Below, one piece after another: positions 10,579 through 37,723 of a DNA stretch of 45,052 nt. The stretch lies in contig JBFJXH010000002.1 of assembly GCA_041623215.1 (NCBI GenBank), forward strand, positions 1 to 45,052, written 5' to 3'. The notes beneath the pieces were generated by a model that saw only the letters and a program-made list of their open reading frames with translations, was not told the origin of the DNA and ran no database searches. Each line of letters starts with the position of its first letter. The stretch's first letter is position 1. The position numbers and the translations under genes are program-made. This stretch comes from Thermoplasmatota archaeon. GTDB lineage: Archaea; Thermoplasmatota; E2; JACPAO01; JAHFTW01.

Positions 10579-10665
10579 GCCCAGCCCCCGCTTGAGCCAG
10601 GAAGCCGAGTGGTGTTCCGGTGCGGTTAAAGTCGAAACGCCAGTGGCCGCGCCCTAGGATTGACC

Positions 10666-11403: not shown

Positions 11404-11480
11404 TCGCGCACTCCACCGCGGTGGGGCTGCTACGCCAGCGTGGCGCCAACGTTCATATTGCCGCAGGCGGCGTGCTTGGT

Positions 11481-11834
11481 ATGGCTGCACGTTTTGCCAT
11501 GCTTGCGTTCCTGATTGTTTCCTTGCTGATGGCGGGGTGCACTGCCAGTGGCGGATCGGCCGCGGTTGCCTTCCAAGGTGCCGGAGCCAGCGACCGCACG
11601 GCGACGACCGATTGTGATGACACCGGCTCCGTTGCAGTCGGAACCCAAGGCGCTGGAAGCGTCACGGTGACCGTCACCGACGGCAAAGGAGCGGTGGTCT
11701 TTGAACGCACCTTCCAAGGCGGTGGCCAAGAGGGCCGCGTAGATGACATCAAGGGAGAGCCCGGTGAATGGATGCTCCGAGCGCGCAGTGCTAGCGGTTT
11801 TTCGGGCCAATATGGCATTACGCTGTCGTGCTGA
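11481..11834 (+). CDS. Small lipoprotein or secreted protein of unknown function
   Basis: MAARFAMLAFLIVSLLMAGC has a lipobox-like LMAGC, followed by a Gly/Thr-rich beta-type domain of about 95 aa. It sits between pcn and priL. Confidence 0.55.
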   Translation: MAARFAMLAFLIVSLLMAGCTASGGSAAVAFQGAGASDRTATTDCDDTGSVAVGTQGAGSVTVTVTDGKGAVVFERTFQGGGQEGRVDDIKGEPGEWMLRARSASGFSGQYGITLSC

Positions 11835-11863
11835 CTTGAAGTAGCACGCCCCACTGCCGCAGC

Positions 11864-13027
11864 GTGGCCGACCTCGTCCGCCTTGCCTGCTATCCATTCT
11901 TGCCCGGCGTCCGCGATGCCGTGCGGGAGGAAGGGCCGGACCTGACGGAGTTGCTCACTTCGCCCATGCTGGAGGGGACACGGCGCCGCGGCGTCAAGCG
12001 TGTCATGGGCGCAATCGCCGGCGAGCCTCCCGAGCCAGGATTCGCCACCGATGAGCGCGGCGCCCTTACGGACTTAGTTTCGTACGGCTTTGCCAAAATG
12101 CTCCTGACTGTGGTTCGCGACCGCCATTTGCTTCGGCGCTACTGCCACCGCGAGGCCGCCCGCGTCGCCGCGCTTCTCAAGGATGACGTGGACGAATCCT
12201 TGAATGCCGCCTCTGATGCTCTCCAAGTTGGCCTAGATGGCCCGGTTCGAAGCGAGGCCCGGCAGGCCGGTGTGAGCGGCGGCGTGGAGAGCCATGTCGA
12301 ACAGTATTGGCGCATCCACTTTGCCGATTACATCCGCCACGCGCCAGGCGACGCCGGCTGGAAACTGGTGGAACGAAGCCTCGACGCCGGTTGGCTCACG
12401 CTGACGCGGCCCGACGCGATTCGCCTGGTGGAAAACGCGTGGGCCAAGCACCTTGAAACCGACATTGGTGTCGGACTCGACGCGCCCGCCCCGGAAGACC
12501 TCGTCGCCGCCCTGCATGGATACGTAGCTGATATCCAACCGCTTCTGGAAGAGGCGCGAGAGTCCTGGAGCACGGGCGACTTTGGCCCCGTCAAGCGTGA
12601 GTTGTTCCCGCCCTGTATCACGGAGCTCTTTGCCGCCATGGTGCGCGGCGAAATGGTCCCTCATCACGGACGCTTTGCCATGGCAAGCTTCCTTGCAACC
12701 ATCGGCATGACGAGCGACGACATCATGCAGTATTTCCGCGAGATTCCCAATTTTGATCCGGACAAATCTCGGTACCAAATCACCCACGTCGCGGGCGAAC
12801 AGGCGGTGGAAAAATACACCCCCCCTGGCTGCTCATGGATGCAAACCAACGGTGTTTGCCCGCTCGAAAAGCGCGATGGCTTGTGCTTCAAGATCAAGCA
12901 CCCACTATCCTACTATCGCGCCCGAATTCGCTTCCAAGAAGATGACAAGAAGGAAGCGGGCAAAGTGCTGGCCACCAAGGAAATGGGCAAGACGCACGCC
13001 AAGGTGGCCCGGGAGCGCGGAGCATGA
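11864..13027 (+). CDS. priL: DNA primase large (regulatory) subunit PriL
   Basis: 387 aa. The Fe-S cluster cysteines are PPCITELF and CSWMQTNGVCPLEKRDGLC. The stop overlaps the priS ATG (ATGA at 13024-13027). Confidence 0.88.
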   Translation: MADLVRLACYPFLPGVRDAVREEGPDLTELLTSPMLEGTRRRGVKRVMGAIAGEPPEPGFATDERGALTDLVSYGFAKMLLTVVRDRHLLRRYCHREAARVAALLKDDVDESLNAASDALQVGLDGPVRSEARQAGVSGGVESHVEQYWRIHFADYIRHAPGDAGWKLVERSLDAGWLTLTRPDAIRLVENAWAKHLETDIGVGLDAPAPEDLVAALHGYVADIQPLLEEARESWSTGDFGPVKRELFPPCITELFAAMVRGEMVPHHGRFAMASFLATIGMTSDDIMQYFREIPNFDPDKSRYQITHVAGEQAVEKYTPPGCSWMQTNGVCPLEKRDGLCFKIKHPLSYYRARIRFQEDDKKEAGKVLATKEMGKTHAKVARERGA

Positions 13028-14385
13028 GCCAAGCCGGGCAAGCGGACAAATCAGCCGCAACGGCTTCCACCGCCGCACCAGGGCCAGCAGTCACCAACAA
13101 ACCCACCAAACCCGAAGCCCCAGCCTCGTTCCCACCACCGGTTCGTAGCACCATTCATTGGCTGCAGGACCGCTTCCGACAATACTACCGCGAGCAGCCA
13201 CCGGAGCCTCCCGAACGCGCAACCCGGCGCGAATACGGCTACATTTTGTGGCCCAAGCGACCGGGACCGCCGCCCTTCGTCCGCCACAAGGCGTACCGTG
13301 ACGGCGCGGCCCTGCAGGCTGATTTAGCACGCACCGGCCCCCACTCGGCCTACTACTCCACTGCCTATTACCGCCGCCCGGGCGAACTGAAAATGGCCGA
13401 CAAGGGCTGGCTTGGTGCCGAGCTCATCTTCGACTTGGATGCCGACCACTTAGACGAAGTGGAGGCGGCCAAGGACGCCGGCAGCGAAGTCCCTGTTGCC
13501 CGCCAATTGGCGCTGGTCAAGGAACAATTCAAGCGCCTCCTGGACGAGTTTCTGCTCGGCGATTTTGGCCTCTCCGAGCGTGACTTGTTCATTACGTTCA
13601 GTGGCGGCCGCGGGTACCACTGTCACGTTACTCAGCCCCGTCTGCAAAGCATTGATGCCCGAGCGAGACGGGAAATCGTCGATTACGTCACTGGCAAGGT
13701 GCCAGCGAAGCGAGGGACCAATGAGCCGGACCTGTCCGCCTTCCTGCGGCCTCGGGTCGTCGGCGTCGAAGGCCGCGGCCGCTTCGCCAAGAAGCAGACC
13801 ACGTACGACCTAGCACCATCCGATGCTCCTGGGTGGCCCGGGCGCCTGACCCGTGGCCTGGTGCAGGCACTGCGAACGAACGTCTTGCAAGCCGAAGACC
13901 CCGCCGTTGCCAAGGCGTGGCTAACCGCCCTGGACGGGATTGGCGACAAAAGCGCCGATGAATTCCTGCGCCGCCTTGACGAGCCAACGCTGGAGCGCAT
14001 TGCACAAGGGCATGCATTCCAAGGGCCTGTGGTGCTCCGCATCTGCCGCCAAGTGCTGGGCCAGGCAGCGCTGACATTGGCCAAAGGCGAAACAGACGAG
14101 CCTGTCACAGCCGATGTCAAGCGCCTCATCCGGTTACCGGGCAGCCTGCACGGCAAGACGGGGCTGAGGGTGGTCAGCTTGAATCGGGACGAATTGGACG
14201 ACTTCGACCCGTTGCGGGACGCCGTGGCCTTGGGGATGGAGCCGGTATCCATCACGCCGCGATTTGATGACGCCATGACGCTTGGCGGCGAGACGGTCCA
14301 CGTGACCGCTGGTGAAGCAACGGAAGTACCGACGGCGCATGCCGTGTGGTGGTGTGCTCGCCAGGCCGGGACCATCATTCGTTGA
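13024..14385 (+). CDS. priS: DNA primase small (catalytic) subunit PriS with a low-complexity N-terminal extension
   Basis: AEP motifs: ELIFDLDADH, FSGGRGYHCHV, IRLPGSLHGKTGL. About 40 aa of Ala/Pro/Thr-rich N-terminus. Confidence 0.9.
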   Translation: MSQAGQADKSAATASTAAPGPAVTNKPTKPEAPASFPPPVRSTIHWLQDRFRQYYREQPPEPPERATRREYGYILWPKRPGPPPFVRHKAYRDGAALQADLARTGPHSAYYSTAYYRRPGELKMADKGWLGAELIFDLDADHLDEVEAAKDAGSEVPVARQLALVKEQFKRLLDEFLLGDFGLSERDLFITFSGGRGYHCHVTQPRLQSIDARARREIVDYVTGKVPAKRGTNEPDLSAFLRPRVVGVEGRGRFAKKQTTYDLAPSDAPGWPGRLTRGLVQALRTNVLQAEDPAVAKAWLTALDGIGDKSADEFLRRLDEPTLERIAQGHAFQGPVVLRICRQVLGQAALTLAKGETDEPVTADVKRLIRLPGSLHGKTGLRVVSLNRDELDDFDPLRDAVALGMEPVSITPRFDDAMTLGGETVHVTAGEATEVPTAHAVWWCARQAGTIIR

Positions 14386-14436
14386 TGGAGCCGCCGCGCC
14401 ACCAACCGTTAAGCGGGTCGCCCACGTCGCCAACCC

Positions 14437-15252
14437 GTGGTCGATGGCCCGGTGACTTACGACGTCGTGCAGGACCTGTTACGGTCCGAGCGACGAAGCA
14501 ACCGCCTAGTCACCGTACCGCCGCGATTTTGGCGCGATGTGCGGCAACTGCTCACCGACTTGGAAACCGCGTTTCGAGAGGGCCAGGAGAAAGATCCGTT
14601 CAGCCGGCGCGTCATTCGACTCACGGACGAAGTCAAGAATGCCCGCAACGCAGCCGAAGGCTTGTGGGCGCTTCGTGAGCGAAAGCTGGCGTTGCATGCG
14701 TTGGCCTCTGAGCCCAAGCCCCCAGAAGGCATCACGGGTTCAGAGCAAGCGCTGTTCGACCAATTGGTGAAGGCGTTTGCCGATAGCCGGGCAACCGTCT
14801 TTGAAGGCACATCGGCGGAGGCCGTCGCGGCTGCTAAACCTCCCGCCACGGCGAGCCCCCCATCCTCAGCGCCCACCCAACCAAGCCCATCGCTACCCGG
14901 TGCATCGGCGGCCCCGCCTGCGACGCCGAGCACGTCTGCAACGGCCACTCCGGTCAAGGCCGCCGCAGCAAAACAGGAAGCCCCTCCCGCAGCCAAGGCC
15001 GAGCCCCCTGCGGGCGAGGCCACCCCCGCCGGTGAGCCCGCACCCGCTTCCCCGGCGCCGGTCGTTACCGTCCCGCCCGACACCCCCGGCGATGACAGCG
15101 TGTTGGTGCGAGCGCTGCAAGATTTGCCGCCCTTCGTAGGCCCGGACATGGTTACCTACGAACTCATGGAAGGTGACGTGGCCAGTGTTCCGGGACGGAT
15201 TGCCGCTCTCCTGATTCGAGGAAATCGAGCCGCCGTTGTGGACGCAGCCTAG
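14437..15252 (+). CDS. gins51: GINS subunit (Gins51/Gins15 type) with a Pro/Ala-rich linker of about 110 aa
   Basis: The A-domain pattern is TYDVVQDLLRSERRSNRLVTVPPRFWRDVRQLL...EVKNARNAAEGLWALRERKLALHAL. The B-domain pattern is VLVRALQDLPPFVGPDMVTYELMEGDVASVPGRIAALLIRGNRA. It lies directly downstream of priS. Confidence 0.7.
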   Translation: MVDGPVTYDVVQDLLRSERRSNRLVTVPPRFWRDVRQLLTDLETAFREGQEKDPFSRRVIRLTDEVKNARNAAEGLWALRERKLALHALASEPKPPEGITGSEQALFDQLVKAFADSRATVFEGTSAEAVAAAKPPATASPPSSAPTQPSPSLPGASAAPPATPSTSATATPVKAAAAKQEAPPAAKAEPPAGEATPAGEPAPASPAPVVTVPPDTPGDDSVLVRALQDLPPFVGPDMVTYELMEGDVASVPGRIAALLIRGNRAAVVDAA

Positions 15253-15849: not shown

Positions 15850-16272
15850 CTAGGCCACGTCAGCGGGAGCGTCCACTGCTTCATTGGCGGCAGCGTCCGC
15901 TTCACCGTTCTCTTCGCGCGGAATCCACACCGTGTCGATTCCCTCGGGGAAACTTTTGATCATACCCCGACACGCCCGAAACACTTGCTGCAAGTTGGCG
16001 GCTTTGACGCGGTAGCGGCCTTCGAATTGCCGAATCACCAATTGCGAATCGCCGCGCACCGTGACACCCTTGGCGCCCCACGCGGCGGCTTGTTGGAGCC
16101 CCAGGTAAAGCGCGTGCCATTCGGCCTCGTTGTTGGTTGCGCGGCCCAGGCGCTTTCGAAGCACCATGCGCTTGTCGCCCATGGTGACGATTGCACCGGC
16201 GCCAGCCGGACCAGGATTGCCTTTGCTGGCGCCGTCAAACCAGACGACTGCTTGTTGTGGGTCGGTTGCCAT
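15850..16272 (-). CDS. rnhA: Ribonuclease HI (type 1 RNase H)
   Basis: DEDD residues are in context: WFDGASKGNPGPAGAG, TNNEAEWHAL, GDSQLVI, VWIPREENGEADAAAN. The Met at 16272 lies 1 nt after the uvrB stop, so it is preferred over the overlapping Met at 16299. Confidence 0.88.
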   Translation of the reverse strand: MATDPQQAVVWFDGASKGNPGPAGAGAIVTMGDKRMVLRKRLGRATNNEAEWHALYLGLQQAAAWGAKGVTVRGDSQLVIRQFEGRYRVKAANLQQVFRACRGMIKSFPEGIDTVWIPREENGEADAAANEAVDAPADVA

Positions 16273-16273
16273 G

Positions 16274-18304
16274 TCACTGGGTTGGCTTGCTCTTGCCAAG
16301 ACCCTTTCGCTTGCCCGGCGTGGTTACTTTGGCTTCTCCCGTCTTCAGTTCGATGATGAGGTCGCGTAATTCGGCAGCACGCTCAAAGTCCCACGACTTG
16401 GCCGCCTCGGCCATTTCCTTCTCCAATCCCTTGATGACACGATCTTTCTCCTGCTTGTCCAACAGGCCAAGACTTTCCTTACTGACTTTGGGTTCGGCGG
16501 CCCCTACGCGCTTGCCATCGATTTCAATGCCCTTGATGCTACGCTTGACGTTCTTCGGCGTAATGCCATGCTCCTCATTGTACGCCTGCTGCTTAGCCCG
16601 GCGAGCAGCGGTCAATTCAATGGCTTCCGTCATCGCGTCCGACATCTTGTCCGCATACATGATGACGCGCCCGTTCACATTGCGGGCGGCGCGACCAATG
16701 GTTTGAATGAGGCTGGTTGAGCTGCGAAGGAAGCCAATCTTGTCAGCATCGAAAATAGCTACCAGACTGACTTCCGGCAAGTCCAAGCCTTCACGCAGCA
16801 GGTTGATGCCAACCAAGACATCAAACACCCCGGAACGAAGTTGCTCAAGGATGATGACCCGGTCCAGCGTTTCCACATCTGAATGAAGGTAGGCGACCTT
16901 CAACCCGAGGCCCTGGTAATAGGTGGTTAGCTCCTCGGCCATGCGCTTGGTGAGGGTGGTGACGAGGATGCGTTCGCCCCGCGCCGCAACCTTTTGGATT
17001 TCGCCGTACAAATCGTCCACTTGGCCCATGACGGGACGGACCTCCACCTGTGGATCCAGGAGGCCGGTCGGTCGCACCACGGCTTCGATGGTGCGTGTGC
17101 TGTGTTCCCGTTCGTGCGGTCCTGGCGTTGCACTTGTGAAAATGATGGGGCCTACCTTGCGTTCAAACTCGGGAAACTTGAGCGGCCGATTGTCCAGCGC
17201 CGATGGCAGGCGGAAGCCAAAATCTACCAACGTTTGTTTGCGTTGGCGATCACCATTGTACATTCCACGAATCTGTGACACCGTGACGTGGGACTCGTCG
17301 ATGATGGTCAGAAAATCCTCGGGGAAATAATCCAGCAGACACCAGCCAGGGTCGCCGCGTTTGCGACCCGAAAGGGGCTGACTGTAGTTCTCGATGCCTG
17401 AACAGTAGCCAATCTCGCTCAGCATTTCCAAGTCGTAACGAGTTCGCTGTTCAAGTCGTGCCGCCTCGAGAATCTTACCGTCACCTCGTAGTTCGCGAAG
17501 CCGTTCGTCAAGCTGCGCTTCAATCCGTGCAATAGCACCGGCCATTTGCTCAGGCGGCACAACCCAATGTTTAGCGGGGAAGATTGTGAGTTGTTCGTGG
17601 GCGCGAAGAACGGCACCCGTGACGGGATGAATACGGCGAATCGCCTCGATTTCATCACCCCACAATTCGACGCGAATGGGTTCCTCGTCGCCGGGCGGCA
17701 AGATATCGACCGTGTCGCCGCGGACCCTGAAAGTGCCGTGCTTGAGGTCTGCGTCGTTTCGTTCGTAGTAAATGTCCACAAGTTGCCCGAGCAGGTCGCG
17801 GCGTTGCACCTCTTGCCCGACTTTGAGCCAAACATGGCCAGACCGATAATCCTCGGGCGACCCTAGGCCGTAGATACAGGACACGCTGGCAACCACAACG
17901 ACATCGTCTCGGCTCATCAGCGCCTGCGTGGCTGCGTGCCTAAGTTTCTCCACCTCTTGGTTGACGTCGGATTCTTTGGCAATGTAGGTGTCCGATTGGG
18001 GCACGTAGGCCTCAGGCTGGTAGTAATCATAATAGGAGACGAAATAATGCACTTCGTTGTCGGGAAAGAAGGCCTTCATCTCTTCGTAGATTTGCGCGGC
18101 TAGGGTCTTGTTGTGACTGATGATGATGGCGGGCTTCTTGCCCGCTTCAATCGCTTTGGCCATCAGGAAGGTCTTGCCAACGCCGGTTACGCCTTCCAGC
18201 GTCACCCGTCGCTCCCCAGCAGCCAGAGCCTGCATCAGCGCCTCAATGGCGGGGCCCTGGTCGCCAGCCGGCTCATAGGGGGCATGGACGCGAAGCTCAG
18301 CCAC
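16274..18304 (-). CDS. uvrB: Excinuclease ABC subunit B (bacterial-type NER helicase)
   Basis: Motifs: YEPAGDQGPAIEAL, the Walker A LEGVTGVGKTF, IIDESHVT, SATPG, GRAARN, and a C-terminal UVR domain (EMAEAAKSWDFERAAELRDLIIELK). The GTG at 18304 matches the usual N-terminus. The longest ORF starts at 18406. Confidence 0.93.
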   Translation of the reverse strand: MAELRVHAPYEPAGDQGPAIEALMQALAAGERRVTLEGVTGVGKTFLMAKAIEAGKKPAIIISHNKTLAAQIYEEMKAFFPDNEVHYFVSYYDYYQPEAYVPQSDTYIAKESDVNQEVEKLRHAATQALMSRDDVVVVASVSCIYGLGSPEDYRSGHVWLKVGQEVQRRDLLGQLVDIYYERNDADLKHGTFRVRGDTVDILPPGDEEPIRVELWGDEIEAIRRIHPVTGAVLRAHEQLTIFPAKHWVVPPEQMAGAIARIEAQLDERLRELRGDGKILEAARLEQRTRYDLEMLSEIGYCSGIENYSQPLSGRKRGDPGWCLLDYFPEDFLTIIDESHVTVSQIRGMYNGDRQRKQTLVDFGFRLPSALDNRPLKFPEFERKVGPIIFTSATPGPHEREHSTRTIEAVVRPTGLLDPQVEVRPVMGQVDDLYGEIQKVAARGERILVTTLTKRMAEELTTYYQGLGLKVAYLHSDVETLDRVIILEQLRSGVFDVLVGINLLREGLDLPEVSLVAIFDADKIGFLRSSTSLIQTIGRAARNVNGRVIMYADKMSDAMTEAIELTAARRAKQQAYNEEHGITPKNVKRSIKGIEIDGKRVGAAEPKVSKESLGLLDKQEKDRVIKGLEKEMAEAAKSWDFERAAELRDLIIELKTGEAKVTTPGKRKGLGKSKPTQ

Positions 18305-18415
18305 GACCCGCCAGCCGGGCACGGGTCCAAGAGGCTTGGGGCCAGGGGGGTGAGACCACCAAGTCGCTTCGGCAGTTGGCAGTTTCACCGCCGAGCCGCA
18401 GGCCAACGCCGGCGC

Positions 18416-19357
18416 CTATTCAAGACCGGCTGGGCCAATGCGAAACCGCGCCTGGCGACCATCGGGAATGCTTCGATGCTTGAGAATCGTCGCGCGGCGG
18501 CTGCCGTCGGGCCTTTTTTCGAACCGCACCATGGCTTTCACCAGATGCTCCATCGTACGGCGGGCAAACGGCATCGTGCCGTCCTCTCCGTCATAGACTT
18601 GCCCGGTGACGAGCACCGGCACATGGTGTCGGCGGGCGAAGCCCATTAGATGATGCAACTGCCGCAGAAGCCGGCGCGTCGCCTCCCGTTCGCCTTCGCG
18701 TCCGTCCATGACCATGCGATAGTGGAGATTAATGGAGTCTACCACCACGAGCCCCAAGGAGGGCATTCTCGTTGCCTTCTCAACCAGCTGCTCCTGCTCG
18801 GAGAAGTCATACGGCGTGATGAAGCGAAGCGCCTTGGAAAGCTCCTCCATGGATCGCCCGGGGTCTTCGTCGAGGGCGGCCGAGAAGATTTGCTGCAGGC
18901 GGACAGGACTTACCCCTTCCGTGTCAACGAAGGCGACCGTGTGGTCCTCCAGAATGGCTTGCAACGCGCACTGCAACGCGAGGTTGGTTTTGCCGCTGCC
19001 GCCTTCCCCAAACACCAGCGTCACGGCGTCTCGCTCAAGGCCACCATCCAGCAGCCGGTCCACGGCGTCACAGCGCGTTGATAAGGTAAGAAGTGGAGCC
19101 TCCAGCGGCGACGCGACCTCCTCGCTCGCCTCGCCAAGATTCGCGGGCCTTGCCCCCTCGTCCTGCGAAGCGGGCTCTGGGTCCACAGGTGGCGCCGGCA
19201 AATCCTGGGTCTCGTTGGCTGGCCGAATTTCCGAGCCTTCCGTCGAGTCCGGTTCCTCGACGGGCTCCTGGTGTACTGGCTGCTTTGTTGTCGCTAGTTG
19301 ACTGGCTGCCACGAAATCCGCATCGCCCTCTGGCTCGTCACCGTCGCCGGCGTCCAT
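18416..19357 (-). CDS. radB: RadB (archaeal RadA/Rad51 paralogue) with an acidic N-terminal extension
   Basis: Collinear with Pyrococcus RadB from memory: LLDGGLERDAVTLVFGEGGSGKTNLALQ, VAFVDTEG-SPVRLQQI, LVVVDSINLHYR, HHVPVLVTGQVY, ATILKHRSIPDGRQARFRIGPAGLE. The Met at 19357 lies 2 nt after the upstream stop. Confidence 0.88.
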   Translation of the reverse strand: MDAGDGDEPEGDADFVAASQLATTKQPVHQEPVEEPDSTEGSEIRPANETQDLPAPPVDPEPASQDEGARPANLGEASEEVASPLEAPLLTLSTRCDAVDRLLDGGLERDAVTLVFGEGGSGKTNLALQCALQAILEDHTVAFVDTEGVSPVRLQQIFSAALDEDPGRSMEELSKALRFITPYDFSEQEQLVEKATRMPSLGLVVVDSINLHYRMVMDGREGEREATRRLLRQLHHLMGFARRHHVPVLVTGQVYDGEDGTMPFARRTMEHLVKAMVRFEKRPDGSRRATILKHRSIPDGRQARFRIGPAGLE

Positions 19358-19359
19358 GG

Positions 19360-21072
19360 TCACAAGCGCAAGTGCCCAAGGTCGCGTGACGGGACCCACT
19401 TGACTTTGGTCGCCAAGAGTCTGTCTTGGGCGTCGGCATCAGCCTCATCGCAGACAACCAATCCTAGATCTGCATCCAATGCATTGGCGGTGGCCACAAA
19501 CGAATCGGCTAGCCCAGCATCCAAGCGCATGGGCAGGATGGCGATGAGTCGCTCGGGGAATCCTTCTGGTCGTTCCGCTGCTACTTCCACGTGGTGGCCA
19601 GGCACGTTGGGGTTTTCCAGCAGGTCGTAGCCAGCTTCCTCAAGGCGCTCCAACAAGCGGGCACGCCCGGGGGATGGAAGCATGGTCGAGGTGGCTTGGC
19701 CCGCCACGCCGGCCGTAGCTTGGTGGGCTCCGCGCGTCACTACGGTGGTATCAGCCTGGGCAAGCGGGCGCGGCGGCAACCGGCTGGCTTCCATATCTTG
19801 TGCCCGCGCAACCACAGAACCGGCGTCGCGCTCGGCGCCCGGCATGTGCCCGGATGGCGTAATGCCGCGCGTCGCGGCTTCGCCTCCCAGCATCGCAGGC
19901 TCGTAGCCCGGCTGGGCAGCAAAGCGCCGCGCTCGCTCTTCGGCCTCGGGGTCAACGTAGCGCATGCCCGGCTGCTGGCTTGCCCCTTTCGCCGCCGTGC
20001 GATCTACATTGCCAAGAATCGGTGCTGCTGCCGCTCGGCTGCGAGCTTCACCGCCAATGATGCGGTCGATGTCTCGCGCTTCGCGCTCCCAGTCCGGGTC
20101 CCGTTCAGCACGCGAAAGATGGGTGGGTCGCACCGTTTCGTGCCCAACGCGGGAGCCAGGTGGACCCTCCTGCGCGGCGGCGCCGGGGGAAAATCCGGCC
20201 TGGGCGCCAAGCCCGCCGGCCGCGCTGCCTGCTAGTCCATACAATGCCCCTTGGCTGCCAGTCAAGCCGGCGCCCAGGGCTGCGCCTGCCGTTTGGCGGC
20301 GCAGGCCGTGTCGGGTTTCAAGGTCCTTGAGAAGGTTACGTCGCTCGGACGCCTTGATGCGTTGGATGCGTTGGCGCTCTTCGGCTTCGCGCGCCAAAAA
20401 TGCCGCCGATTGCCAACGGCCGAGCACTTGTTCAAGAAACTCGTCGGCCCGCATCCGGACATCGTCGCCGCGGCTCACAAGATAGACGCAGGAGATATCC
20501 ACGAACCGTCCTGCTTCGGCATCGGGGCCCAGCATCTTGGCCATGGTATCCAGGGCACCATCGTCCAACTCCGCCAATCGATCAACGGGCGCAAAGACGG
20601 CGAGGCGAAGGTTCCGCCGTGCGTCACCGCGGGCCCGGAAGGCTCGGTAGCACCAGGCGTGGCCACTGCCAAAGCCGTCGTCGCCTTGCCGGCCAATCGT
20701 CGTGCCAAGACCTGTGCCCTTGCCCCCGCCTCCTCCGCCCAAGTCCTGGCGGATTGCGCGACATTGGGCCTTGTCGAAGGCGACGCGATCCGCCATCAGG
20801 TCCCTAAAGGGCTGGACGGGCACTACGTGGTCAACACGGTCGCCCATCAGAATGGCACTGTCAATGTTGTCCACGTCGCCGGGGCTAATGGCCTCAACGG
20901 CGGCCTCGACGTCGTTGACGATATCTGGGGCATCCTTGGGCACGCGGACAAGGAGAATCCTGGTATGACCATGCTCCCAGACCACGGCCCCATGGTCGCG
21001 GGCCAGCTCGTAGCGGTACGCCTCCAATTGGTCCCTGGAAATAGGAATCTCCGTCATGCGGCGTGCACCCAT
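19360..21072 (-). CDS. Uncharacterised 570-aa protein; first gene of the radB-uvrB-rnhA operon
   Basis: It has protein-like N- and C-terminal domains separated by Gly/Ala-rich, disordered-looking segments (GGGGGGKGTGLG; AGAALGAGLTGSQGALYGLAGSAAGG). The C-terminal 100 aa (LLERLEEAGYDLLENPNVPGHHVEVAAERPEG..RLIAILPMR...GLVVCDE) vaguely follow the Mrr/restriction-endonuclease-fold layout without the catalytic D/E-K. No P-loop. Confidence 0.7.
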   Translation of the reverse strand: MGARRMTEIPISRDQLEAYRYELARDHGAVVWEHGHTRILLVRVPKDAPDIVNDVEAAVEAISPGDVDNIDSAILMGDRVDHVVPVQPFRDLMADRVAFDKAQCRAIRQDLGGGGGGKGTGLGTTIGRQGDDGFGSGHAWCYRAFRARGDARRNLRLAVFAPVDRLAELDDGALDTMAKMLGPDAEAGRFVDISCVYLVSRGDDVRMRADEFLEQVLGRWQSAAFLAREAEERQRIQRIKASERRNLLKDLETRHGLRRQTAGAALGAGLTGSQGALYGLAGSAAGGLGAQAGFSPGAAAQEGPPGSRVGHETVRPTHLSRAERDPDWEREARDIDRIIGGEARSRAAAAPILGNVDRTAAKGASQQPGMRYVDPEAEERARRFAAQPGYEPAMLGGEAATRGITPSGHMPGAERDAGSVVARAQDMEASRLPPRPLAQADTTVVTRGAHQATAGVAGQATSTMLPSPGRARLLERLEEAGYDLLENPNVPGHHVEVAAERPEGFPERLIAILPMRLDAGLADSFVATANALDADLGLVVCDEADADAQDRLLATKVKWVPSRDLGHLRL

Positions 21073-21310
21073 GGTATCGGCTACGAAACGTGACCGGATA
21101 ATCGTTCCTTTCTCCTGTTGGGCCTACCCGGGGCAAGAAAGCAGTGTTTGTGGTTAGACGATGGAAATCATGGCCAAGTCTTCTTGCAGCGGCTTGGGGG
21201 AGGCCGTCAGAAGAGAGACTGGGGCCGTTTCTGGAAATCGATGAGCGGGCCTCCGTCCATCTACCAGATGAATGGATGAGGAAAACCTGAAAGAGCAAAT
21301 GTTGACGGGA

Positions 21311-21526
21311 TGGGGGAGACCCCTTGATTGCCTGTAGAACACCGAAAAGGACTGGCGGACGGGAATAGACGTGAGAAGAACAGACAAGCTGTTGATTCGT
21401 GAGGAAGAACAGACCCTGGTTGTCTAGCGAGCCTTTTGACATAACACTACGGACGCCGCACTTGCGGCTTTTTCCCCTCGGCCACTCCCTATATTCACTC
21501 CAGGCGCAATCAAGGGGTCTCCCCCA
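21311..21526. repeat. 216-bp imperfect palindrome bounded by perfect 21-bp inverted repeats; candidate MITE or long hairpin RNA
   Basis: TGGGGGAGACCCCTTGATTGC (21311-21331) is the exact reverse complement of 21506-21526. An inner arm 21349-21365 pairs with 21472-21488 (14 of 17 positions) about the same centre (21418.5). The + strand is purine-rich left of the centre and pyrimidine-rich right of it. GCAAATG occurs 9 nt outside the left arm and 10 nt outside the right arm. Confidence 0.9.
21370..21414. repeat. Direct repeat CGTGAG(G)AAGAACAGAC x2 near the palindrome apex
   Basis: The copies are at 21370-21385 and 21398-21414. They are identical apart from one extra G and are separated by 12 nt. 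Confidence 0.85.
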
Positions 21527-21543
21527 GCAACAGGTTGCAAATG

Positions 21544-21574
21544 GTCCCAACCAAGTCCCAACCTCTGCCCAACG
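21544..21574. repeat. Three CCCAAC (GTTGGG on the minus strand) motifs phased at exactly 11 nt
   Basis: CCCAAC occurs at 21546, 21557 and 21568. The first two units are GTCCCAACC. The array is followed by GGGGCCGTTTC, which also occurs at 21221-21231. Confidence 0.8.
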
Positions 21575-21630
21575 GGGCCGTTTCGATTTGTGCCTACGTA
21601 GCGCCGAATTCTCCTGGTGACCAAGCGTAA

Positions 21631-23418
21631 TCAGCGTTCTTCGTGCCTTAGGATTCCGTCGCTCCAGGTTGCAAGGATTGACCACTCCGAGGGATGGGAA
21701 TCCGGGTCGTGGAGTCTGCCGGTACTCAGCAGCACCAAATCAGCGCATTTGCCTACTTCGAGGGTGCCCACGTCGTCTTCCCAATGTAGACTCCATGCGG
21801 CCTGATGGGTGTAGTGCCAGATGGCCGTGGCCGCATCGAGGGCTTGGCCAGGCACCGGATGGTCAACGGCGGCAGCGATTCCGACCAGGGGACCAAAGGG
21901 CATGCCATCGCTGCCAAAGGCAAGCGGGACGCCCGCGGCACGTAACCGGCCGAAGGGATTGTTGTGTATGATTCGCTCCGGCCCCAAGCGTTTGGCGTAC
22001 ATGCTCACATCGTCCGGGTCCTCGTCGGGGCCAGGCGGCCGGCTCCATTCCCCCACAAAATTCGGTTGGCTGCTAGCGACTGCCCCACTAGTGACGTGCT
22101 TAGCGATGAGGTCAGCTGGCAGGATTTCGTCATGCTCGATGCGGTGACGAAGTTGCGTGCGGCGGCGCTGGTCCAGTGCTTGGATGGCATCGAGCGCCGC
22201 TTCGACGGCGGCATCACCGATGGCGTGTAGGTGCAGCTGAATCCCGGCTGCATGGGCCTTCGTCGTCAGGCTGTCAATGTCCTGTTGGCTCCAATTCGGT
22301 ACGCCAGTGGGGTGCGGGTGGTCGGGCGGTAGGTCGGCGTAGGGCTCGCGCATCCAAGCTGTATGGGCTCCGAGACTACCATCAAGGAAGATCTTCAGGC
22401 CCCCATCTTGGAGCCACCTGCCGGCCGCTGCGCTTGGGCTGGCTGGAGCGACCTCCGCATTGCCAAGGTCATGGCGTCGTCCAGTTTGGAAGCCAGCCGC
22501 AATTTCAGCCTCCAACTGTTGAACGTAGACGCTGCTGGATGTGCGCACGGTTAGGCGACCAGCAGTTGCGGCCCGTTGCAGGGCGCGTCGGTAGGGTGCT
22601 TGGGAATAGTCGCCGACGGTTGTTACCCCGCGTCGGTGGGCTACATCACAGGCCTTCTGCAAGGCGTAGTCCAGGTCCGCGTCGCTGGTTGGCATCACTT
22701 CGTTGAGGTAGAGGCTGGCATCTTCGTCGAGGCGACCGGTATCGAGGTTGACGAGCCGGTCGGTGTCCCAATGTCGTCGCACCAGATTCAGGGCAGCGGT
22801 GTTGGCGTAGGCAACATGGCCGCAAATGCGTCGAAAAACGAGTGGCCGCCCCGTGGTGGCGGTCACCTCGTCCAACTCTTGGATGGTCGGCGGTCGGCGG
22901 TCGTCCACGGGCCAGTCCGCCTCGTCCCAGCCTTCGCCGATGACGCCACCTCCTGCCCCCGCGGCGTCAGAGTCCGCTTCGGCGGGGTGCTCGTGCAGCC
23001 ATTGGCGGATGGCGGCTAGGCAGGCTTGGCGGCTTGTCAGACCTCGAAGGTCAGGACGGAGCCGCTTCACGCCGACATGTAGGAAGTGGGTGTGGGCATC
23101 GACGAAGCCGGGGATGACCACTTGCTGGCGCGCGTCGATGGGCTTGATGCCGGCGGCCGCAGCGGCAGCTGCCACCTCGGCGGTGGAGCCCACGAGGGCG
23201 ATGCGCCCATGTTTCCAAAGGAGGGCTTCGGCTTTCTGGGTTGGGTCCACCATGGTATGGACCACGGCATTGATGATGGCGCCGTGCCGGGCCTCGTCGG
23301 GGGTGGTGGGTGAGGCGACGATGTCTGGCTCACGTCGAGGGTTGCGGGCGGCCACGGTGGGCACCGGCTCCTGGTCCTCATGACGCTTGCCAACTGCGGC
23401 GCCAGCAGGCCAAAACAA
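21631..23418 (-). CDS. Metal-dependent amidohydrolase (YtcJ-like, Amidohydro_3 type)
   Basis: 595 aa. Motifs: VIPGFVDAHTHFLHVG, QLHLHAIGDAAV, RIEHDEIL, AFGSDGMPFGP. The N-terminal 40 aa are uncertain. Confidence 0.85.
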   Translation of the reverse strand: MFWPAGAAVGKRHEDQEPVPTVAARNPRREPDIVASPTTPDEARHGAIINAVVHTMVDPTQKAEALLWKHGRIALVGSTAEVAAAAAAAGIKPIDARQQVVIPGFVDAHTHFLHVGVKRLRPDLRGLTSRQACLAAIRQWLHEHPAEADSDAAGAGGGVIGEGWDEADWPVDDRRPPTIQELDEVTATTGRPLVFRRICGHVAYANTAALNLVRRHWDTDRLVNLDTGRLDEDASLYLNEVMPTSDADLDYALQKACDVAHRRGVTTVGDYSQAPYRRALQRAATAGRLTVRTSSSVYVQQLEAEIAAGFQTGRRHDLGNAEVAPASPSAAAGRWLQDGGLKIFLDGSLGAHTAWMREPYADLPPDHPHPTGVPNWSQQDIDSLTTKAHAAGIQLHLHAIGDAAVEAALDAIQALDQRRRTQLRHRIEHDEILPADLIAKHVTSGAVASSQPNFVGEWSRPPGPDEDPDDVSMYAKRLGPERIIHNNPFGRLRAAGVPLAFGSDGMPFGPLVGIAAAVDHPVPGQALDAATAIWHYTHQAAWSLHWEDDVGTLEVGKCADLVLLSTGRLHDPDSHPSEWSILATWSDGILRHEER

Positions 23419-23742
23419 TGCAGCTTCCGACGGCTGTGTCCGTTACTGTACAAACTTGTGCAAACCGAAGGCGACGAACAGGAGATTTGTTACCAATTCC
23501 GGGGCCGCTACGACCGGCTCCAACGGGCCCACAGGAACCATCACCGGCTATCTGTTACCAAAGCGCACTAAATCCCCCTGCCTCGTCTCCCACCTCCCCG
23601 CTGCGGCCTGGTGCTGCGGCGGGTCCGGTGGCCTCCAAACACCGGGATGGGATGCACAGGGCGAATGACGTGGCCCGACCGCTACCGACGCCTTGCACCC
23701 CACCCCCTGGCCCCACTTCTGCATTCCACCCGAGGGGATATC

Positions 23743-26700
23743 ATGAGTCACGACACAATACCAGATGGCACCCAAAGCGCCCTTTTGGACCACGAGGCCA
23801 CGCGCGCCGAGGACAGCCCCGACACAACGATTACCATGACTCCAGACGGATCTCCACCCCAAGCCGCCTCCCCGAGTCCGGCCGCGGACAGCAGCGCGGA
23901 CGTTGTCACGGCTGCGCCGCTTCCTGGTGCGGACGCTGGACAAACTCCTCCGGCCGCTACCGGCGGCGTGGACGAAGCTCCCGCTGGTCGAGGCCTCACC
24001 GTGGCCCGCCGGTTCACTGAGGTCGGTGACGACCCCTTCAAGACGCTAGAATGGACGACACGCCGCAGTGTCATTAGCAACCCCGATGGCAGTGTCGTGT
24101 TCGAGGCGGAAGCGGCCGAAGTCCCAGCCGACTGGTCCCAGTTGGCCACCGACATCATTGTCTCCAAATACTTCCGCAAGGCAGGCGTGCCGCAACCGGA
24201 CGGGACCACGGGCGCAGAAACCAGCGCCGCCCAGGTGTGCCACCGCATCGCTAACACGGTGCGCTGGTACGGCGAAAAGCAGGGCTATTTTGCGTCGAAG
24301 GAAGACGCGGACACGTTCGAGGATGAACTAAAGTGGCTGCTGATTACACAGCGCGGCGCCTTCAATAGCCCGGTGTGGTTCAATTGTGGCCACGAACATG
24401 TGTACGGAATCACGGGTAGCGGCGGCAACTGGGCCTGGGACCACGAGGCCAAGGAAGTCCGCCAGGTCGAGAATAACTACGCCCGGCCTCAGTGCAGCGC
24501 CTGCTTCATCCAGAAGGTCGAGGACAACCTGATTGACTCCAAGGGTATTTTCGAACTCCTGCAAGCCGAGGCGCGTTTGTTCAAGTACGGCAGCGGCACC
24601 GGCAGCAACTTCTCGCAGATTCGCAGCCGCTATGAGAATCTCAGCGGCGGTGGCACCAGCAGCGGCCTGATGAGCTTCCTCAAGGTGTTGGATGCCGGCG
24701 CCGGGGCAACCAAGAGTGGTGGAACAACCCGCCGCGCCGCCAAGATGGTGACGCTGGACATGGACCACCCTGAAATTCTGGACTTCATTACTTGGAAGGT
24801 CCGTGAGGAGGACAAGGCGCTCATGTTGATTCGCGCCGGCATGGACGCGGACTTCAATGGCGAAGCCTACGCGACCGTGAGCGGCCAGAACTCCAACAAC
24901 TCGGTGCGCGTAACGGACACCTTCATGCAGGCGGTGGAAGCCGACGGTGAATGGCAAACCGTGATGCGCACGACGGGCGAGGTCCATGAAACCTACAAGG
25001 CGCGTGAGATGTGGAACCAGGTCGCAGATGCGGCGTGGCGCTGCGCCGATCCTGGCCTGCAATACGACACCACCATCAACACATGGCACACCTGCAAGGT
25101 GACCGACCGCATCAACGGTTCCAACCCCTGCAGCGAATACATGTTCCTCGACGACTCGGCCTGTAACCTGGCAAGTCTCAACCTGCTGAAGTTCCTAGAC
25201 GCGGAAGGCAACTTCGACGTGGAGGGCTATCGCCACGCCATCCGTGTTTTCTTCATTGCGCAGGAAATTTTCGTCGATCTATCCTCCTACCCAACAGAGG
25301 ACATTGCCCGCAACTCCCACGACTACCGGCCGCTAGGTCTTGGCTATGCCAACCTGGGGGCCTTGCTGATGGTGAAGGGTTTCGCTTACGATTCACCTGA
25401 GGGACGAGCCGTGGCTGGCGCCCTGACGGGCATTCTTTGCGGTCATGCGTACAAGGTTAGCGCCGAGATGGCCGCCGTCAAGGGTCCGTTTGTGGGCCTG
25501 AATGTGGAGGACGAAACGGGCCAAAGCAACTGGGACACCATGGCAGAAGTCATTGGTATGCACCTTGACGCCGCAAAGCGTCTGCGCGATACCGGCAGCC
25601 CGCTGGAACAAATGGAGGGCTGCGACATGGCGACGCCCGCCATCGCCAACGGCCCCTTCGCTAGCATTTTCGATGCCGCAGTCCAAGATTGGGATGCCGC
25701 GCTGGAACAAGGCCGTGTAGATGGCTGGCGCAACGCTCAAGCGACCGTGCTTGCCCCCACGGGCACCATTGGTCTTCTCATGGATTGTGACACCACCGGT
25801 GTCGAGCCCGATTTCTCGCTTGTCAAGTTCAAGAAGCTGGCCGGTGGCGGCTACTTCAAGATCATTAACCAGTCCGTGCCGGCAGCGCTCCGGAATCTTG
25901 GCTACTCGGAAGAGGAAATCCGCCTGGTCGAGCAATTCGCTATCGGTCACGGAACGTTGGAAGGTGGCCCCGTGGACAAGGCCATGTTCCTGGACAAGGG
26001 CTTCACCGAAGACCAATATCAGGAAGCGTACGACGCTGTGGTGCGCGAGAAGGCCTTCAATGAGTACACGCCAGGCATCAGTCCGGCTGCCATGCGCAAG
26101 GCCGGCTTCAGCCGCCAGGCGGTACGGGAGCTACAAGCGTACGTGGAAGGCCACCAAACCATCGAAGGCAGCCTCGTTCGCGAGGAGCACTTGCCCATCT
26201 TTGATTGCGCCAACAAGTGTGGCGATGGCCAACGATTCATTCACCACACGGGGCACATCCGGATGATGGCGGCAACCCAGCCCTTCTTGTCGGGTGCCAT
26301 TAGCAAGACCATCAACATGCCCAACGAGGTCACCGTCGAGGATGTGGCAGAGGCGTACATGATGGGCTGGAAGTTGAACCTCAAGGCGGTCGCCCTGTAC
26401 CGTGATGGCTCCAAGCACAGCCAGGTCCTGAGCAGTGGCGGGAAGGACGACGAAGAAGGCGAGGAAGCAACCGTCCAAGTGGTCGTGAAAGAACCAGCCG
26501 GCCCCAAGCACGGTGAAATTGAACGGCCGCCCCGCGACAATGACCAAGGCTTCAAGCGCACCGTGACCATTTACACGGCGCATGGCCCCGAAAAGGTCGA
26601 CATTCACGTCTGGGAATACAATGACGGGCGCCCCTGTGAAGTGTTCGTTTCCGCTCGCAAGTCCGGTACTTTGACGGACAACTTCCTCAAGGAAGTGGGC

Positions 26701-27198
26701 AAGAACTACTCGCGCACCCTGCAACTTGGCATGAGCCTGGATGAGCTCACCAAGAAGATGGTGAACGAGCACGGGCCTCTGGCCGGTCAAACGGACCACC
26801 GCTACATCAAGAGCTGCCTGGGCATCCAGGATCTCATTGGCAAGCTGCTACGCTACGAATACTTCGGCGAGAACCAGTTCCTCAGCGTCCAACCCGACCC
26901 CGAGGCACCTGACTACGTTCCCACCCGCCGCGAAGTGCTCGAGGCCCTGCGCCTGGCTCGCCAACGCCCCCGCAACGAAAAGGCGCTCACTGACTTTGCG
27001 CCAGCTGAGGAAGCGGAGGAAGACGAGGGTGAACACAGCTTCGACAAGGCGCTTGGCAAGACCAGCGACGACCCGAACGACTTGCTCAAGAGTATGGGCG
27101 GCGACGCGCCGAGTTGCGATTCTTGCGGCCACACGACCGTTCGCAACGGTGCTTGCTACAAGTGTCTGAATTGCGGCAATTCGATGGGTTGCTCCTGA
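23743..27198 (+). CDS. nrdJ: Class II (adenosylcobalamin-dependent) ribonucleotide reductase with a TSCPD domain and a C-terminal Zn ribbon
   Basis: Motifs: NPCSEYMFLDDSACNLASLNL, VLAPTGTIGLLMDCDTTGVEPDF, GAISKTINMP, the TSCPD-like region ...RPCEVFVSARKSG...YIKSCLGIQD, and the terminal CDSCGH...CYKCLNCGNSMGC. The Met at 23743 is preceded by GAGGGG. The first ~90 aa are low complexity. Confidence 0.93.
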   Translation: MSHDTIPDGTQSALLDHEATRAEDSPDTTITMTPDGSPPQAASPSPAADSSADVVTAAPLPGADAGQTPPAATGGVDEAPAGRGLTVARRFTEVGDDPFKTLEWTTRRSVISNPDGSVVFEAEAAEVPADWSQLATDIIVSKYFRKAGVPQPDGTTGAETSAAQVCHRIANTVRWYGEKQGYFASKEDADTFEDELKWLLITQRGAFNSPVWFNCGHEHVYGITGSGGNWAWDHEAKEVRQVENNYARPQCSACFIQKVEDNLIDSKGIFELLQAEARLFKYGSGTGSNFSQIRSRYENLSGGGTSSGLMSFLKVLDAGAGATKSGGTTRRAAKMVTLDMDHPEILDFITWKVREEDKALMLIRAGMDADFNGEAYATVSGQNSNNSVRVTDTFMQAVEADGEWQTVMRTTGEVHETYKAREMWNQVADAAWRCADPGLQYDTTINTWHTCKVTDRINGSNPCSEYMFLDDSACNLASLNLLKFLDAEGNFDVEGYRHAIRVFFIAQEIFVDLSSYPTEDIARNSHDYRPLGLGYANLGALLMVKGFAYDSPEGRAVAGALTGILCGHAYKVSAEMAAVKGPFVGLNVEDETGQSNWDTMAEVIGMHLDAAKRLRDTGSPLEQMEGCDMATPAIANGPFASIFDAAVQDWDAALEQGRVDGWRNAQATVLAPTGTIGLLMDCDTTGVEPDFSLVKFKKLAGGGYFKIINQSVPAALRNLGYSEEEIRLVEQFAIGHGTLEGGPVDKAMFLDKGFTEDQYQEAYDAVVREKAFNEYTPGISPAAMRKAGFSRQAVRELQAYVEGHQTIEGSLVREEHLPIFDCANKCGDGQRFIHHTGHIRMMAATQPFLSGAISKTINMPNEVTVEDVAEAYMMGWKLNLKAVALYRDGSKHSQVLSSGGKDDEEGEEATVQVVVKEPAGPKHGEIERPPRDNDQGFKRTVTIYTAHGPEKVDIHVWEYNDGRPCEVFVSARKSGTLTDNFLKEVGKNYSRTLQLGMSLDELTKKMVNEHGPLAGQTDHRYIKSCLGIQDLIGKLLRYEYFGENQFLSVQPDPEAPDYVPTRREVLEALRLARQRPRNEKALTDFAPAEEAEEDEGEHSFDKALGKTSDDPNDLLKSMGGDAPSCDSCGHTTVRNGACYKCLNCGNSMGCS

Positions 27199-28719: not shown

Positions 28720-30219
28720 ATGATGCGCCGAACGCTGGTAGCGCCGCTGATGGCCCTCATTGCCATCACCTCGCTAGCGACGGCGCTACCGTCGGCCTCG
28801 GCGGCCATCAATGACGAGCATCCCTACCAGGATGTGGTTCCGTTCTCACGGGGCCTTGATGACGTTCAGACCTTCTTGTCCGGTCAAGTGACCGGCACCT
28901 TCCAAGCGGCTGATGCCACGCTGGGCTTCATTGAGTCGCGCGATTTAGCGGTCGTCGGCCTAACACGGGCCTGCTGGCAAGAGCCTGGCCTGGGCAACCG
29001 ATGTGAAGAAGGCGACGAGGTCCGTGTCGAGGTTGCTGATAGCGGCTCCATTGGCATTGCGACCGAGGGCTCTTCCTCGCTTCGCGTGGAAGCGGACCAC
29101 GCCCTCAGCTTGCTGGTCGACTTGGGTAGTCGGCAGGATTTGGGCGGCCTCGATGTGGGGCCTTCCCTCGTCTCCAGTAACATCAATGGGCGTGTCTCGC
29201 AGGTCCGCCTGCCACCGGCGGACGGCATGCCGATTGCCTCGCTGTCCGAGAGCACCACGATACACATCATCGTTGATGACCGTGTAGTCTCGACGCTTGA
29301 GGGCAAACGTGCCGTGATTGTGGATGGCGACCCGCTCATCGGGGCCTTCCGTTCGGCCGTAACAGTCCTTCCGCTGGGCACCGGCTCCCAGGTCTTGTTG
29401 GAACCGGCCGACCCGCAACTCGTCGCCGACGGTTTGGACCCGCTGCGCATGACGCGGCTGATGGAATCTCTCAACTCCGCGTCAGCGGGCGAGCCAAGTG
29501 ACAACGGCGACGTGCAGTTGCCGGATGAGCTTCGAGAGCTGATGGCCGAGGTCTTCGATGGCGCCCTTCTGCGGGTGGACCTAGAGGGCGAGGGCGGCAA
29601 CGACTTACTCTCTGATTTGACGCTGGTTCGCTTTAGCACCCTGCAGATTCGTCCCGACGGAACTGGCAAAGTGCTTGTCCGGGGTCCAAGTCCGCTGCAA
29701 GTGGAGGGCGGTGAAGTGGCGGGCGCCTCAGCAACCCTAGGTGTTGGCTTGATTCAGTTTCCGTGGTGGAGTTGGGTCTTGCTTGCGCTGGGTGTGGCCC
29801 TTTGGGTGGTGGCCCTCACCACGCGTGCGCCCAAGCAAAACGAGCAATGGGACCGCTTCCGCTTCGTCGGCTGGATTAGCGCGCCGCTGGCCCTCATCCT
29901 GGTTTTCATCCTCTGGGACCGCGAGGTGGAGGCGGTGTGGGGAACGAGTCTCATGACCAGCGGTGGCAACGGCGACCTCGTCCTAGCCGGCGGCCTGGTG
30001 ATTCTTCAGTTGGGTTCCCTCATCTATCTCATCCTGGCCGTCGTCTGGCCCCTACAAATGGTGCTTCGTAACGGCCTGCGTCTTGCCCGCCAAGGGACGT
30101 TCATGGGCCTCTATCGGCCCATTGGCATGGTGCTTGGCTTCCTGATTGGTGCACCCCTTTTGCTGGTGTTCCTGGAATTGGTACTTGGTCGGCTTGTGGA
30201 GCAACTTGCCGGCGCGTGA
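28720..30219 (+). CDS. Membrane protein of unknown function, with a signal peptide, an exported domain of about 340 aa and a C-terminal multi-TM domain
   Basis: MMRRTLVAPLMALIAITSLATALPSASA is the signal peptide. The C-terminal third has 4-5 hydrophobic helices (WWSWVLLALGVALWVVAL, ISAPLALILVFILW, LVLAGGLVILQLGSLIYLILAVVW, IGMVLGFLIGAPLLLVFLELVL). Confidence 0.65.
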   Translation: MMRRTLVAPLMALIAITSLATALPSASAAINDEHPYQDVVPFSRGLDDVQTFLSGQVTGTFQAADATLGFIESRDLAVVGLTRACWQEPGLGNRCEEGDEVRVEVADSGSIGIATEGSSSLRVEADHALSLLVDLGSRQDLGGLDVGPSLVSSNINGRVSQVRLPPADGMPIASLSESTTIHIIVDDRVVSTLEGKRAVIVDGDPLIGAFRSAVTVLPLGTGSQVLLEPADPQLVADGLDPLRMTRLMESLNSASAGEPSDNGDVQLPDELRELMAEVFDGALLRVDLEGEGGNDLLSDLTLVRFSTLQIRPDGTGKVLVRGPSPLQVEGGEVAGASATLGVGLIQFPWWSWVLLALGVALWVVALTTRAPKQNEQWDRFRFVGWISAPLALILVFILWDREVEAVWGTSLMTSGGNGDLVLAGGLVILQLGSLIYLILAVVWPLQMVLRNGLRLARQGTFMGLYRPIGMVLGFLIGAPLLLVFLELVLGRLVEQLAGA

Positions 30220-30247
30220 ATCTGCGGCTGCGAGCCACTGGTCTGAT

Positions 30248-37696: not shown

Positions 37697-37723
37697 CCTC
37701 CTGGCGCCGTTTTCGTCGTGGGG

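Follow-up and report, generated by a model that had tools for sequence, protein, structure and literature searches.

A probable Orc1/Cdc6-type replication origin with inverted origin recognition boxes in an uncultured Thermoplasmatota lineage

The 558-bp gap and described archaeal origins

Origin recognition boxes (ORBs) are 22-23-nt sites bound by archaeal Orc1/Cdc6. In the predicted origins of Methanomassiliicoccales, inverted pairs of such boxes lie 39-256 bp apart and adjoin orc1/cdc6.1 (PMC4153887, Table 2). In Sulfolobus oriC1 and Pyrococcus oriC, both experimentally shown and linked to the initiator gene, inverted ORBs with the mini-ORB core TCCAnnnGAAA and a subsequent G-string flank an unwinding element, and replication and repair genes are clustered nearby. 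G-string ORBs likewise surround the unwinding element of Haloferax volcanii oriC1, for which GC skew was used in prediction and beside which the repair genes uvrC and hef are found (PMC1868953). The arrangement ORB(-)/duplex unwinding element (DUE)/ORB(+), found in 67% of predicted Cdc6-type origins, has been put forward as the minimal functional oriC of archaea (preprint 10.64898/2026.08.15.744077). Here we analyzed a 45,052-bp contig of a Thermoplasmatota archaeon, taken whole and referred to as the window, and in particular a 558-bp intergenic gap (21073-21630) that contains a long perfect palindrome. By their sequence, the arms of this palindrome are a pair of inverted ORBs, and the gap is probably an Orc1/Cdc6-type oriC, or one of the origins, of this uncultured lineage.

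The gap is bounded by the stop codon of an amidohydrolase gene on one side and by the ATG of a gene for a 570-aa protein on the other, with both genes on the minus strand. The locus shares its phylum with Methanomassiliicoccales, as well as the inverted disposition of the boxes and a 22-nt ORB variant that is one base under the archaeal consensus. However, where the Methanomassiliicoccales pairs adjoin orc1/cdc6.1, the pair in the window lies between the amidohydrolase gene and the gene of a nuclease-like protein that is accompanied by radB. Sulfolobus and Pyrococcus differ in that their origins have been demonstrated, whereas that of the window is predicted. H. volcanii oriC1 differs in its extended halophile G-string, in its many more repeats, in its position next to orc1, and in having been verified by an autonomous-replication assay; repair genes beside the origin are a shared trait. 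The oriC of Hyperthermus butylicus, a member of another phylum (Thermoproteota) that we compared by description only, is reported to have the ORB(-)/DUE/ORB(+) layout and, as far as the preprint's description goes, no adjacent initiator gene (preprint 10.64898/2026.08.15.744077). The element in the window is therefore of a known kind, and its uncommon trait is a conserved neighborhood that lacks an initiator gene.

A sequence-only reading of this DNA had described the gap as a gene-free island of lower GC, and this description held. Its GC is 0.543, vs. 0.622 for the window, and none of its short open reading frames (ORFs) was matched significantly in Pfam (the best E, 0.024, did not reach the curated cut-off). 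A tRNA/tmRNA search found none. A reading in terms of bacterial promoters and terminators was discarded, since the scan gave no meaningful output and the host is archaeal. Among assembled contigs, the DNA was traced to four marine metagenomes, all from a single study, at a depth of 5-8x, and every relative found through the flanking genes was labeled as a Thermoplasmatota or Thermoplasmata metagenome-assembled genome.

Inverted boxes conserved at one syntenic site

The perfect 21-bp palindrome arms reported earlier were confirmed, with no counterpart in 100 shuffles of the window. To identify them, we scanned the 45 kb with a matrix built from the arms of 12 relatives, leaving the window out. 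The two arms ranked first and second (ORB-left 28.3 bits, ORB-right 26.2 bits), while the next match reached 14.7 bits, i.e., the window holds at least two ORB elements matching the archaeal consensus. When applied to ten published Methanomassiliicoccales boxes, the arm-built matrix gave 18.6-26.5 bits, except for M. luminyensis ORB1 as an outlier at 7.2 bits; its own arms scored 16-29 bits, and the best of 200,000 random 22-mers scored 15.0. The published ORB consensus of Methanomassiliicoccales is GTTCCAGTGGAAATGG-AGGGGT(A), which may be extended by GGGGGT, and that of archaea in general is CTTCCAGTGGAAACGAAAGGGGT (both PMC4153887); for euryarchaea, GTTCCAGTGGAAAC-AAA----GGGGG has been given (PMC1868953). 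Counted by eye, 16 of the 22 positions of the published ORB consensus are matched by ORB-left. With every arm oriented outward, the 13 loci yield 26 arms that all conform to GTTCCAnnnGAAAYnAnGGGGTC. The optional GGGGGT extension of Methanomassiliicoccales recurs in L008, L010, L082, L083, and L086 (L numbers denote the loci of relatives). Unlike the Methanomassiliicoccales boxes, most boxes of the window and its relatives run on into a C-run, GGGGTCCCCC, so that each box end is partly self-complementary. The palindrome is perfect over 21 bp because both boxes keep the conserved half (GCAATCAAGGGGTC) and a short extension that has been homogenized in this lineage.

Conservation of the element follows its position. 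The order nrdJ (or FEN-1), amidohydrolase, a gap of 266-850 bp, the 570-aa homologue, and usually radB is kept in L001-L008, L010, L012, L046, L081-L092, L094, and L095, and every syntenic gap bears both arms. The ORB module was present in all 20 of the syntenic loci carrying a homologue of the 570-aa gene. In L093, another gene begins 82 bp after the amidohydrolase gene, the 570-aa homologue is absent, and so are the arms. Over 968 kb of fetched DNA, boxes conforming to a strict ORB pattern were almost confined to the syntenic loci. Seven relatives (L002, L008, L009, L010, L012, L046, and L081) also have lone full ORBs in the gap between nrdJ and the amidohydrolase gene (Table 1), which suggests that their origin zone brackets the latter gene; the corresponding intergenic region of the window has no extra ORB.

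This fixed position bears directly on an earlier proposal, that the palindrome is a miniature inverted-repeat transposable element (MITE), i.e., a non-autonomous element whose 21-bp arms would be terminal inverted repeats and whose GCAAATG flanks would be a 7-bp target-site duplication. Perfect terminal repeats with GCAAATG on both sides are indeed what such an element would show. However, the search for additional copies with variable flanks, which would mark a MITE, returned none: the element is single-copy within the window, its arm has no exact match in 185,579 species genomes, and the four metagenomes contain one locus with no alternative flanks. The same module occupies the same site in the relatives. 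The GCAAATG copies (21295-21301 and 21537-21543) do lie 9 and 10 nt from the arms, as had been noted, but they are not adjacent to the repeat ends, and since a 7-mer direct repeat occurs in the 40-nt flanks of 2 of 21 loci, they are within chance and do not amount to a target-site duplication. Because a single-copy element keeps a fixed syntenic site even though the flanking proteins of window and relatives are only 43-50% identical, a mobile MITE can be ruled out, and we regard this origin of the palindrome as extremely unlikely.

The palindrome had also been read as a single long hairpin, with a structured noncoding RNA or 3' untranslated region among the explanations offered. In such a case, the flanking genes would be cotranscribed with an element of ~215 nt whose ends form a long closing helix. 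The element folds more stably than its shuffles do (z = -4.5 and -5.3), the arms are complementary in all relatives with some two-sided changes (9 pairs), and within an inner helix of five pairs the ratio of G-U to A-C is 8 to 1. The stability comes from the arms, however, and the inner flanks pair no better than shuffles (z = -1.2). Nothing conserved pairs inside the arms (mean z = -0.85; in-register P > 0.2 in 12 of 12 relatives), and RNAalifold kept only 11 core pairs. Rfam searches returned no family match, either for the window and 11 relatives at the gathering threshold or for the gap at E up to 10, where hits were at chance level only. A hand-written structure of 25 pairs was 78.2% paired compared with 75.7% after column shuffling, a value reached by 27 of 500 shuffles, and its covariation score was reached by 58 of 500. 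Since pairing is barely above that of column shuffles, the complementarity of the arms is explained by conserved columns. Moreover, variable positions are paired in only about half of the sequences, and the overall count of 24 G-U vs. 19 A-C carries no strand signal. The strands of the helix are themselves ORBs, which also occur singly nearby, and boxes found singly point to protein-binding sites rather than to an RNA helix. No RNA sequencing run contains the stretch. Taken together, a structured RNA appears very unlikely.

Further repeats of the gap are listed in Table 1. An inner pair about the same axis was borne out: it is complementary at 14 of 17 positions (P ~0.002 vs. shuffles in the window) but gives P > 0.2 in 12 of 12 relatives, and this inner repeat is specific to the present lineage. 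The flip from purine to pyrimidine at the axis was likewise seen, across the midpoint of the spacer between the boxes. The 11-nt direct repeat GGGGCCGTTTC that was said to bracket the element is present twice. The 16/17-nt direct repeat near the apex exists, although its exact part is 11 nt long, and each lineage has its own direct repeat in a pyrimidine- or purine-rich half of the spacer (TTCTTCCTCCTCTA twice in L008, GTTTCGTCCTACTC twice in L010, GAAGAACAGAC twice in the window). Three GTTGGG motifs phased at 11 nt were found as described, as CCCAAC on the plus strand. Tandem Repeats Finder did not call this array; a contig of metagenome run X4 lacks exactly one of its 11-nt units (at 21557), from which we infer that copy number varies in the population. 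GGAAATC motifs occur at 21163 and 21233, but the inverted copy placed at 21581 is merely GATTT.

Table 1. Features of the candidate origin and its surroundings. Positions are those of the window, except where the locus of a relative is named.
Feature	Sequence	Position	Strand	Remarks
ORB-left	GTTCTACAGGCAATCAAGGGGTC	21318-21340	minus	Full box, TTCnA end toward spacer; best in 45 kb
ORB-right	ACTCCAGGCGCAATCAAGGGGTC	21497-21519	plus	Full box, inverted relative to ORB-left; second in 45 kb
Spacer, candidate DUE		21341-21496		156 bp; GC 0.526 vs. 0.622 in the window; purine 0.64, then 0.31 (gene-sense strand)
Mini-ORB-like box	CTTCCTCACGAATC	21394-21407	minus	Inside spacer; 10.5 bits over matrix positions 1-14
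Left arm of 21-bp repeat		21311-21331		G-string half of ORB-left plus 7-nt outward extension (TGGGGGA, plus strand)
Right arm of 21-bp repeat		21506-21526		G-string half of ORB-right plus outward extension (TCCCCCA)
Inner inverted repeat, left copy	GGACTGGCGGACGGGAA	21349-21365		Pairs with 21472-21488
Inner inverted repeat, right copy	TTCCCCTCGGCCACTCC	21472-21488		C>T variant at 21479 in three metagenomes
Direct repeat, two copies	GAAGAACAGAC	21375-21385, 21404-21414		Purine/pyrimidine tract of spacer
Three CCCAAC motifs		21546, 21557, 21568 (span 21546-21573)		GTTGGG on minus strand; 11-nt steps; outside ORB-right
Promoter-like box	GGAACGATTATCC	21096-21108	minus	TATA-like ATTAT, 26-30 nt ahead of the start codon (ATG) of the 570-aa gene
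570-aa gene		19360-21072	minus	Adjoins candidate origin; followed by radB, uvrB
Amidohydrolase gene (Amidohydro_3)		21631-23418	minus	Other flank of candidate origin
Extra ORB		L002 2721-2740		
Extra ORBs		L008 5666-5685, 5901-5920		
Extra ORB		L009 647-666		
Extra ORB		L010 5904-5923		
Extra ORBs		L012 1581-1600, 1816-1835		
Extra ORB		L046 5745-5764		
Extra ORB		L081 43-62		

Spacer, strand composition, and the initiator gene

The layout ORB(-)/spacer/ORB(+), with the two boxes in inverted orientation, is common to all 13 aligned loci, the window included, and the spacer measures 144-158 bp in 12 of them. In nearly all of 20 relatives, spacer GC is 10-25 points under that of the locus (e.g., 0.36 vs. 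0.60 and 0.41 vs. 0.67), with L004 as an exception (0.67 vs. 0.69); some of the ORB pairs in this comparison were picked imperfectly by pattern. An AT-rich candidate unwinding element is thus found between the boxes, although in the window itself the difference is only 0.53 vs. 0.62. Purine and pyrimidine tracts are also present in the spacers. Using the first 14 matrix positions, we obtained three mini-ORB hits in the gap vs. 0.3 expected. One of these, the box inside the spacer, is a weak counterpart, at the same place, of a motif found in the spacers of relatives (alignment A3). That motif is oriented and non-palindromic, and consists of a TATAAC-like sequence, ~6 nt, and GGGTCTGAyGAATCCAGtAGAAG, in which the TCCAnnnGAAG part is mini-ORB-like. 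It is carried by L004, L005, L006, L007, L082-L086, and L090-L092 (columns ~205-270 of A3) and is conserved about as well as the ORBs. It may represent a promoter together with a mini-ORB, or else a site to which a second factor binds.

Strand composition was evaluated as well. In the cumulative GC skew analysis that the earlier reading had proposed, the curve of the window reached its lowest point at 21129, within the gap, and skew changes from -0.020 on the left to +0.024 on the right. By block permutation, the difference between the two sides has P ~0.01 and the depth of the V P ~0.04; after regression on gene strand, a side effect of +0.029 (t = 2.6) was retained. This evidence for an origin is suggestive only.

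Several observations weigh against an origin at this site. With a GC of 0.53, compared with 0.62 for the genome, the spacer of the window shows only a modest AT enrichment, and the unwinding elements of Sulfolobus oriC1 and Pyrococcus oriC are far more AT-rich than this spacer. For origins without an adjacent initiator gene, the rule of Ori-Finder-Arch calls for at least three ORBs (preprint 10.64898/2026.08.15.744077), whereas the gap has two full ORBs and one weak mini-ORB; the count is four in L008 and three in both L010 and L046 if the next intergenic region is included. The skew switch was not reproduced in relatives over 2-10 kb on either side, L008 excepted; at this scale the composition of single genes dominates. 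No orc1/cdc6 or other AAA+ initiator was found among the ORFs of the 45-kb window, nor was orc1/cdc6 found within 10 kb on either side in two relatives (L094 and L095). Finally, ORBs outside origins are known, namely ORB3 and ORB4 of M. intestinalis (PMC4153887).

These points could be accommodated if Orc1/Cdc6 binds the boxes but replication does not fire there. The element would then be a dormant or satellite origin, or a regulatory site that lets the initiator act on the downstream repair operon (the nuclease-like gene, radB, and uvrB). Since no orc1/cdc6 is nearby and non-origin ORBs exist, this remains the main rival. By motif scores the boxes are genuine ORBs, yet they have no initiator gene nearby, and orphan ORBs distant from orc1 are also reported for Methanomassiliicoccales (PMC4153887); the downstream operon is one of DNA repair, and the skew signal was not reproduced in relatives other than L008. 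On the other hand, a full inverted pair with an AT-enriched spacer of constrained length is the layout of an origin and not of a single operator, and the skew minimum of the window falls within the gap. The promoter of the 570-aa gene also speaks to this question. In relatives, its promoter-like box reads GGAACCGTTTTCC and stays at a fixed distance, 22-35 nt upstream of the start codon, which suggests a leaderless or short-leader mRNA. In contrast, the distance from the ORB pair to the promoter and downstream start codon varies (~40-380 nt to the start codon, as read off the gap coordinates). Because the promoter box is fixed while the ORB distance is not, the pair does not behave as a simple operator. 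Moreover, adjacency of the initiator gene is usual but not universal; H. butylicus offers a precedent, inasmuch as the preprint describes its oriC as having no adjacent initiator gene (preprint 10.64898/2026.08.15.744077). We therefore consider a non-firing Orc1/Cdc6 site rather unlikely, although it deserves to be kept in mind.

Motif identity, the arrangement of the boxes, syntenic conservation at one site, a spacer that is AT-enriched and fixed in length, and the switch of skew in the window point instead to a probable replication origin. The earlier suggestion of a replication-related binding array is supported by these data and sharpened, in that the arms correspond to ORBs in an ORB(-)/DUE/ORB(+) layout and the window's skew minimum lies in the gap. 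The two full ORBs are inverted and separated by 156 bp, such that the TTCCA end of each points into the spacer and the GGGG end away from it. In an origin so built, each box would be bound by one Orc1/Cdc6 molecule in fixed polarity. The two initiators would then load MCM helicase on the AT-richer spacer with its purine/pyrimidine tracts, and the spacer would melt and give rise to bidirectional replication.

Neighboring genes and significance of the candidate origin

The 570-aa protein encoded next to the gap had no Pfam or NCBIfam match. Its N-terminal domain of ~200 aa was modeled with a pLDDT (predicted local distance difference test) of 85 and matched no solved structure, while the C-terminal 100 aa (pLDDT 96) matched the nuclease domain of NucS/EndoMS (2vld_A, Foldseek E 4.2e-5, TM 0.68; 5gke_A); a long, disordered, Gly/Ala-rich linker joins the two folded domains. 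The modeled C-terminal domain thus resembles NucS/EndoMS, and in this sense the protein is nuclease-like. A word-index homologue search with the protein returned only itself, and the family was recovered by tblastn on the fetched loci and by a full profile search. The latter yielded 141 clusters (50% identity) from 1.84 billion proteins, with the N-domain always N-terminal; a scan of metagenomes with the N-domain alignment added one locus.

Downstream of the 570-aa gene lies radB (TIGR02237, E 1.7e-53), and on the other side nrdJ starts divergently at 23611. Within 17 kb of the candidate origin, radB, uvrB, nrdJ, a Lhr-type helicase, and a DHHA1-domain (RecJ/GAN-like) protein were identified with Pfam and NCBIfam. 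Replication and repair genes crowd this region (10660-15252, 15850-19399, 23611-27198, 30146-33145, and 37718-38725), and replication islands close to origins are already known (PMC2643942). A FEN-1 (XPG_N/XPG_I) gene recurs within a few kb of the module, on either side, in L082-L084, L087-L089, L094, and L095.

A bolder proposal can be made for this neighborhood, i.e., that in this Thermoplasmatota clade an ancestral ORB-type origin has been unlinked from orc1/cdc6 and tied to a lineage-restricted pair, RadB and the protein that combines an unknown N-terminal fold with a NucS/EndoMS-like domain, which would act as origin-associated factors. We consider this improbable. If true, however, the pair might link the start of replication with recombination, or with how the origin region is processed, and the locus would be a new kind of origin module. 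In either case, the small, uncharacterized family of the 570-aa protein, always adjoining the module, is a candidate for study.

The locus also has practical implications. Origin pipelines that rely on adjacency to orc1/cdc6 would miss this module or rank it low, and where a long, perfect palindrome is met in an archaeal intergenic gap, initiator boxes should be considered before transposons or RNAs. No close relative of this lineage has been sequenced (best protein identity ~50%), and a probable origin is a landmark for it. It would provide a fixed point for orienting genomes, for growth-rate estimates based on read depth in metagenomes, and for comparisons of origins within Thermoplasmatota.

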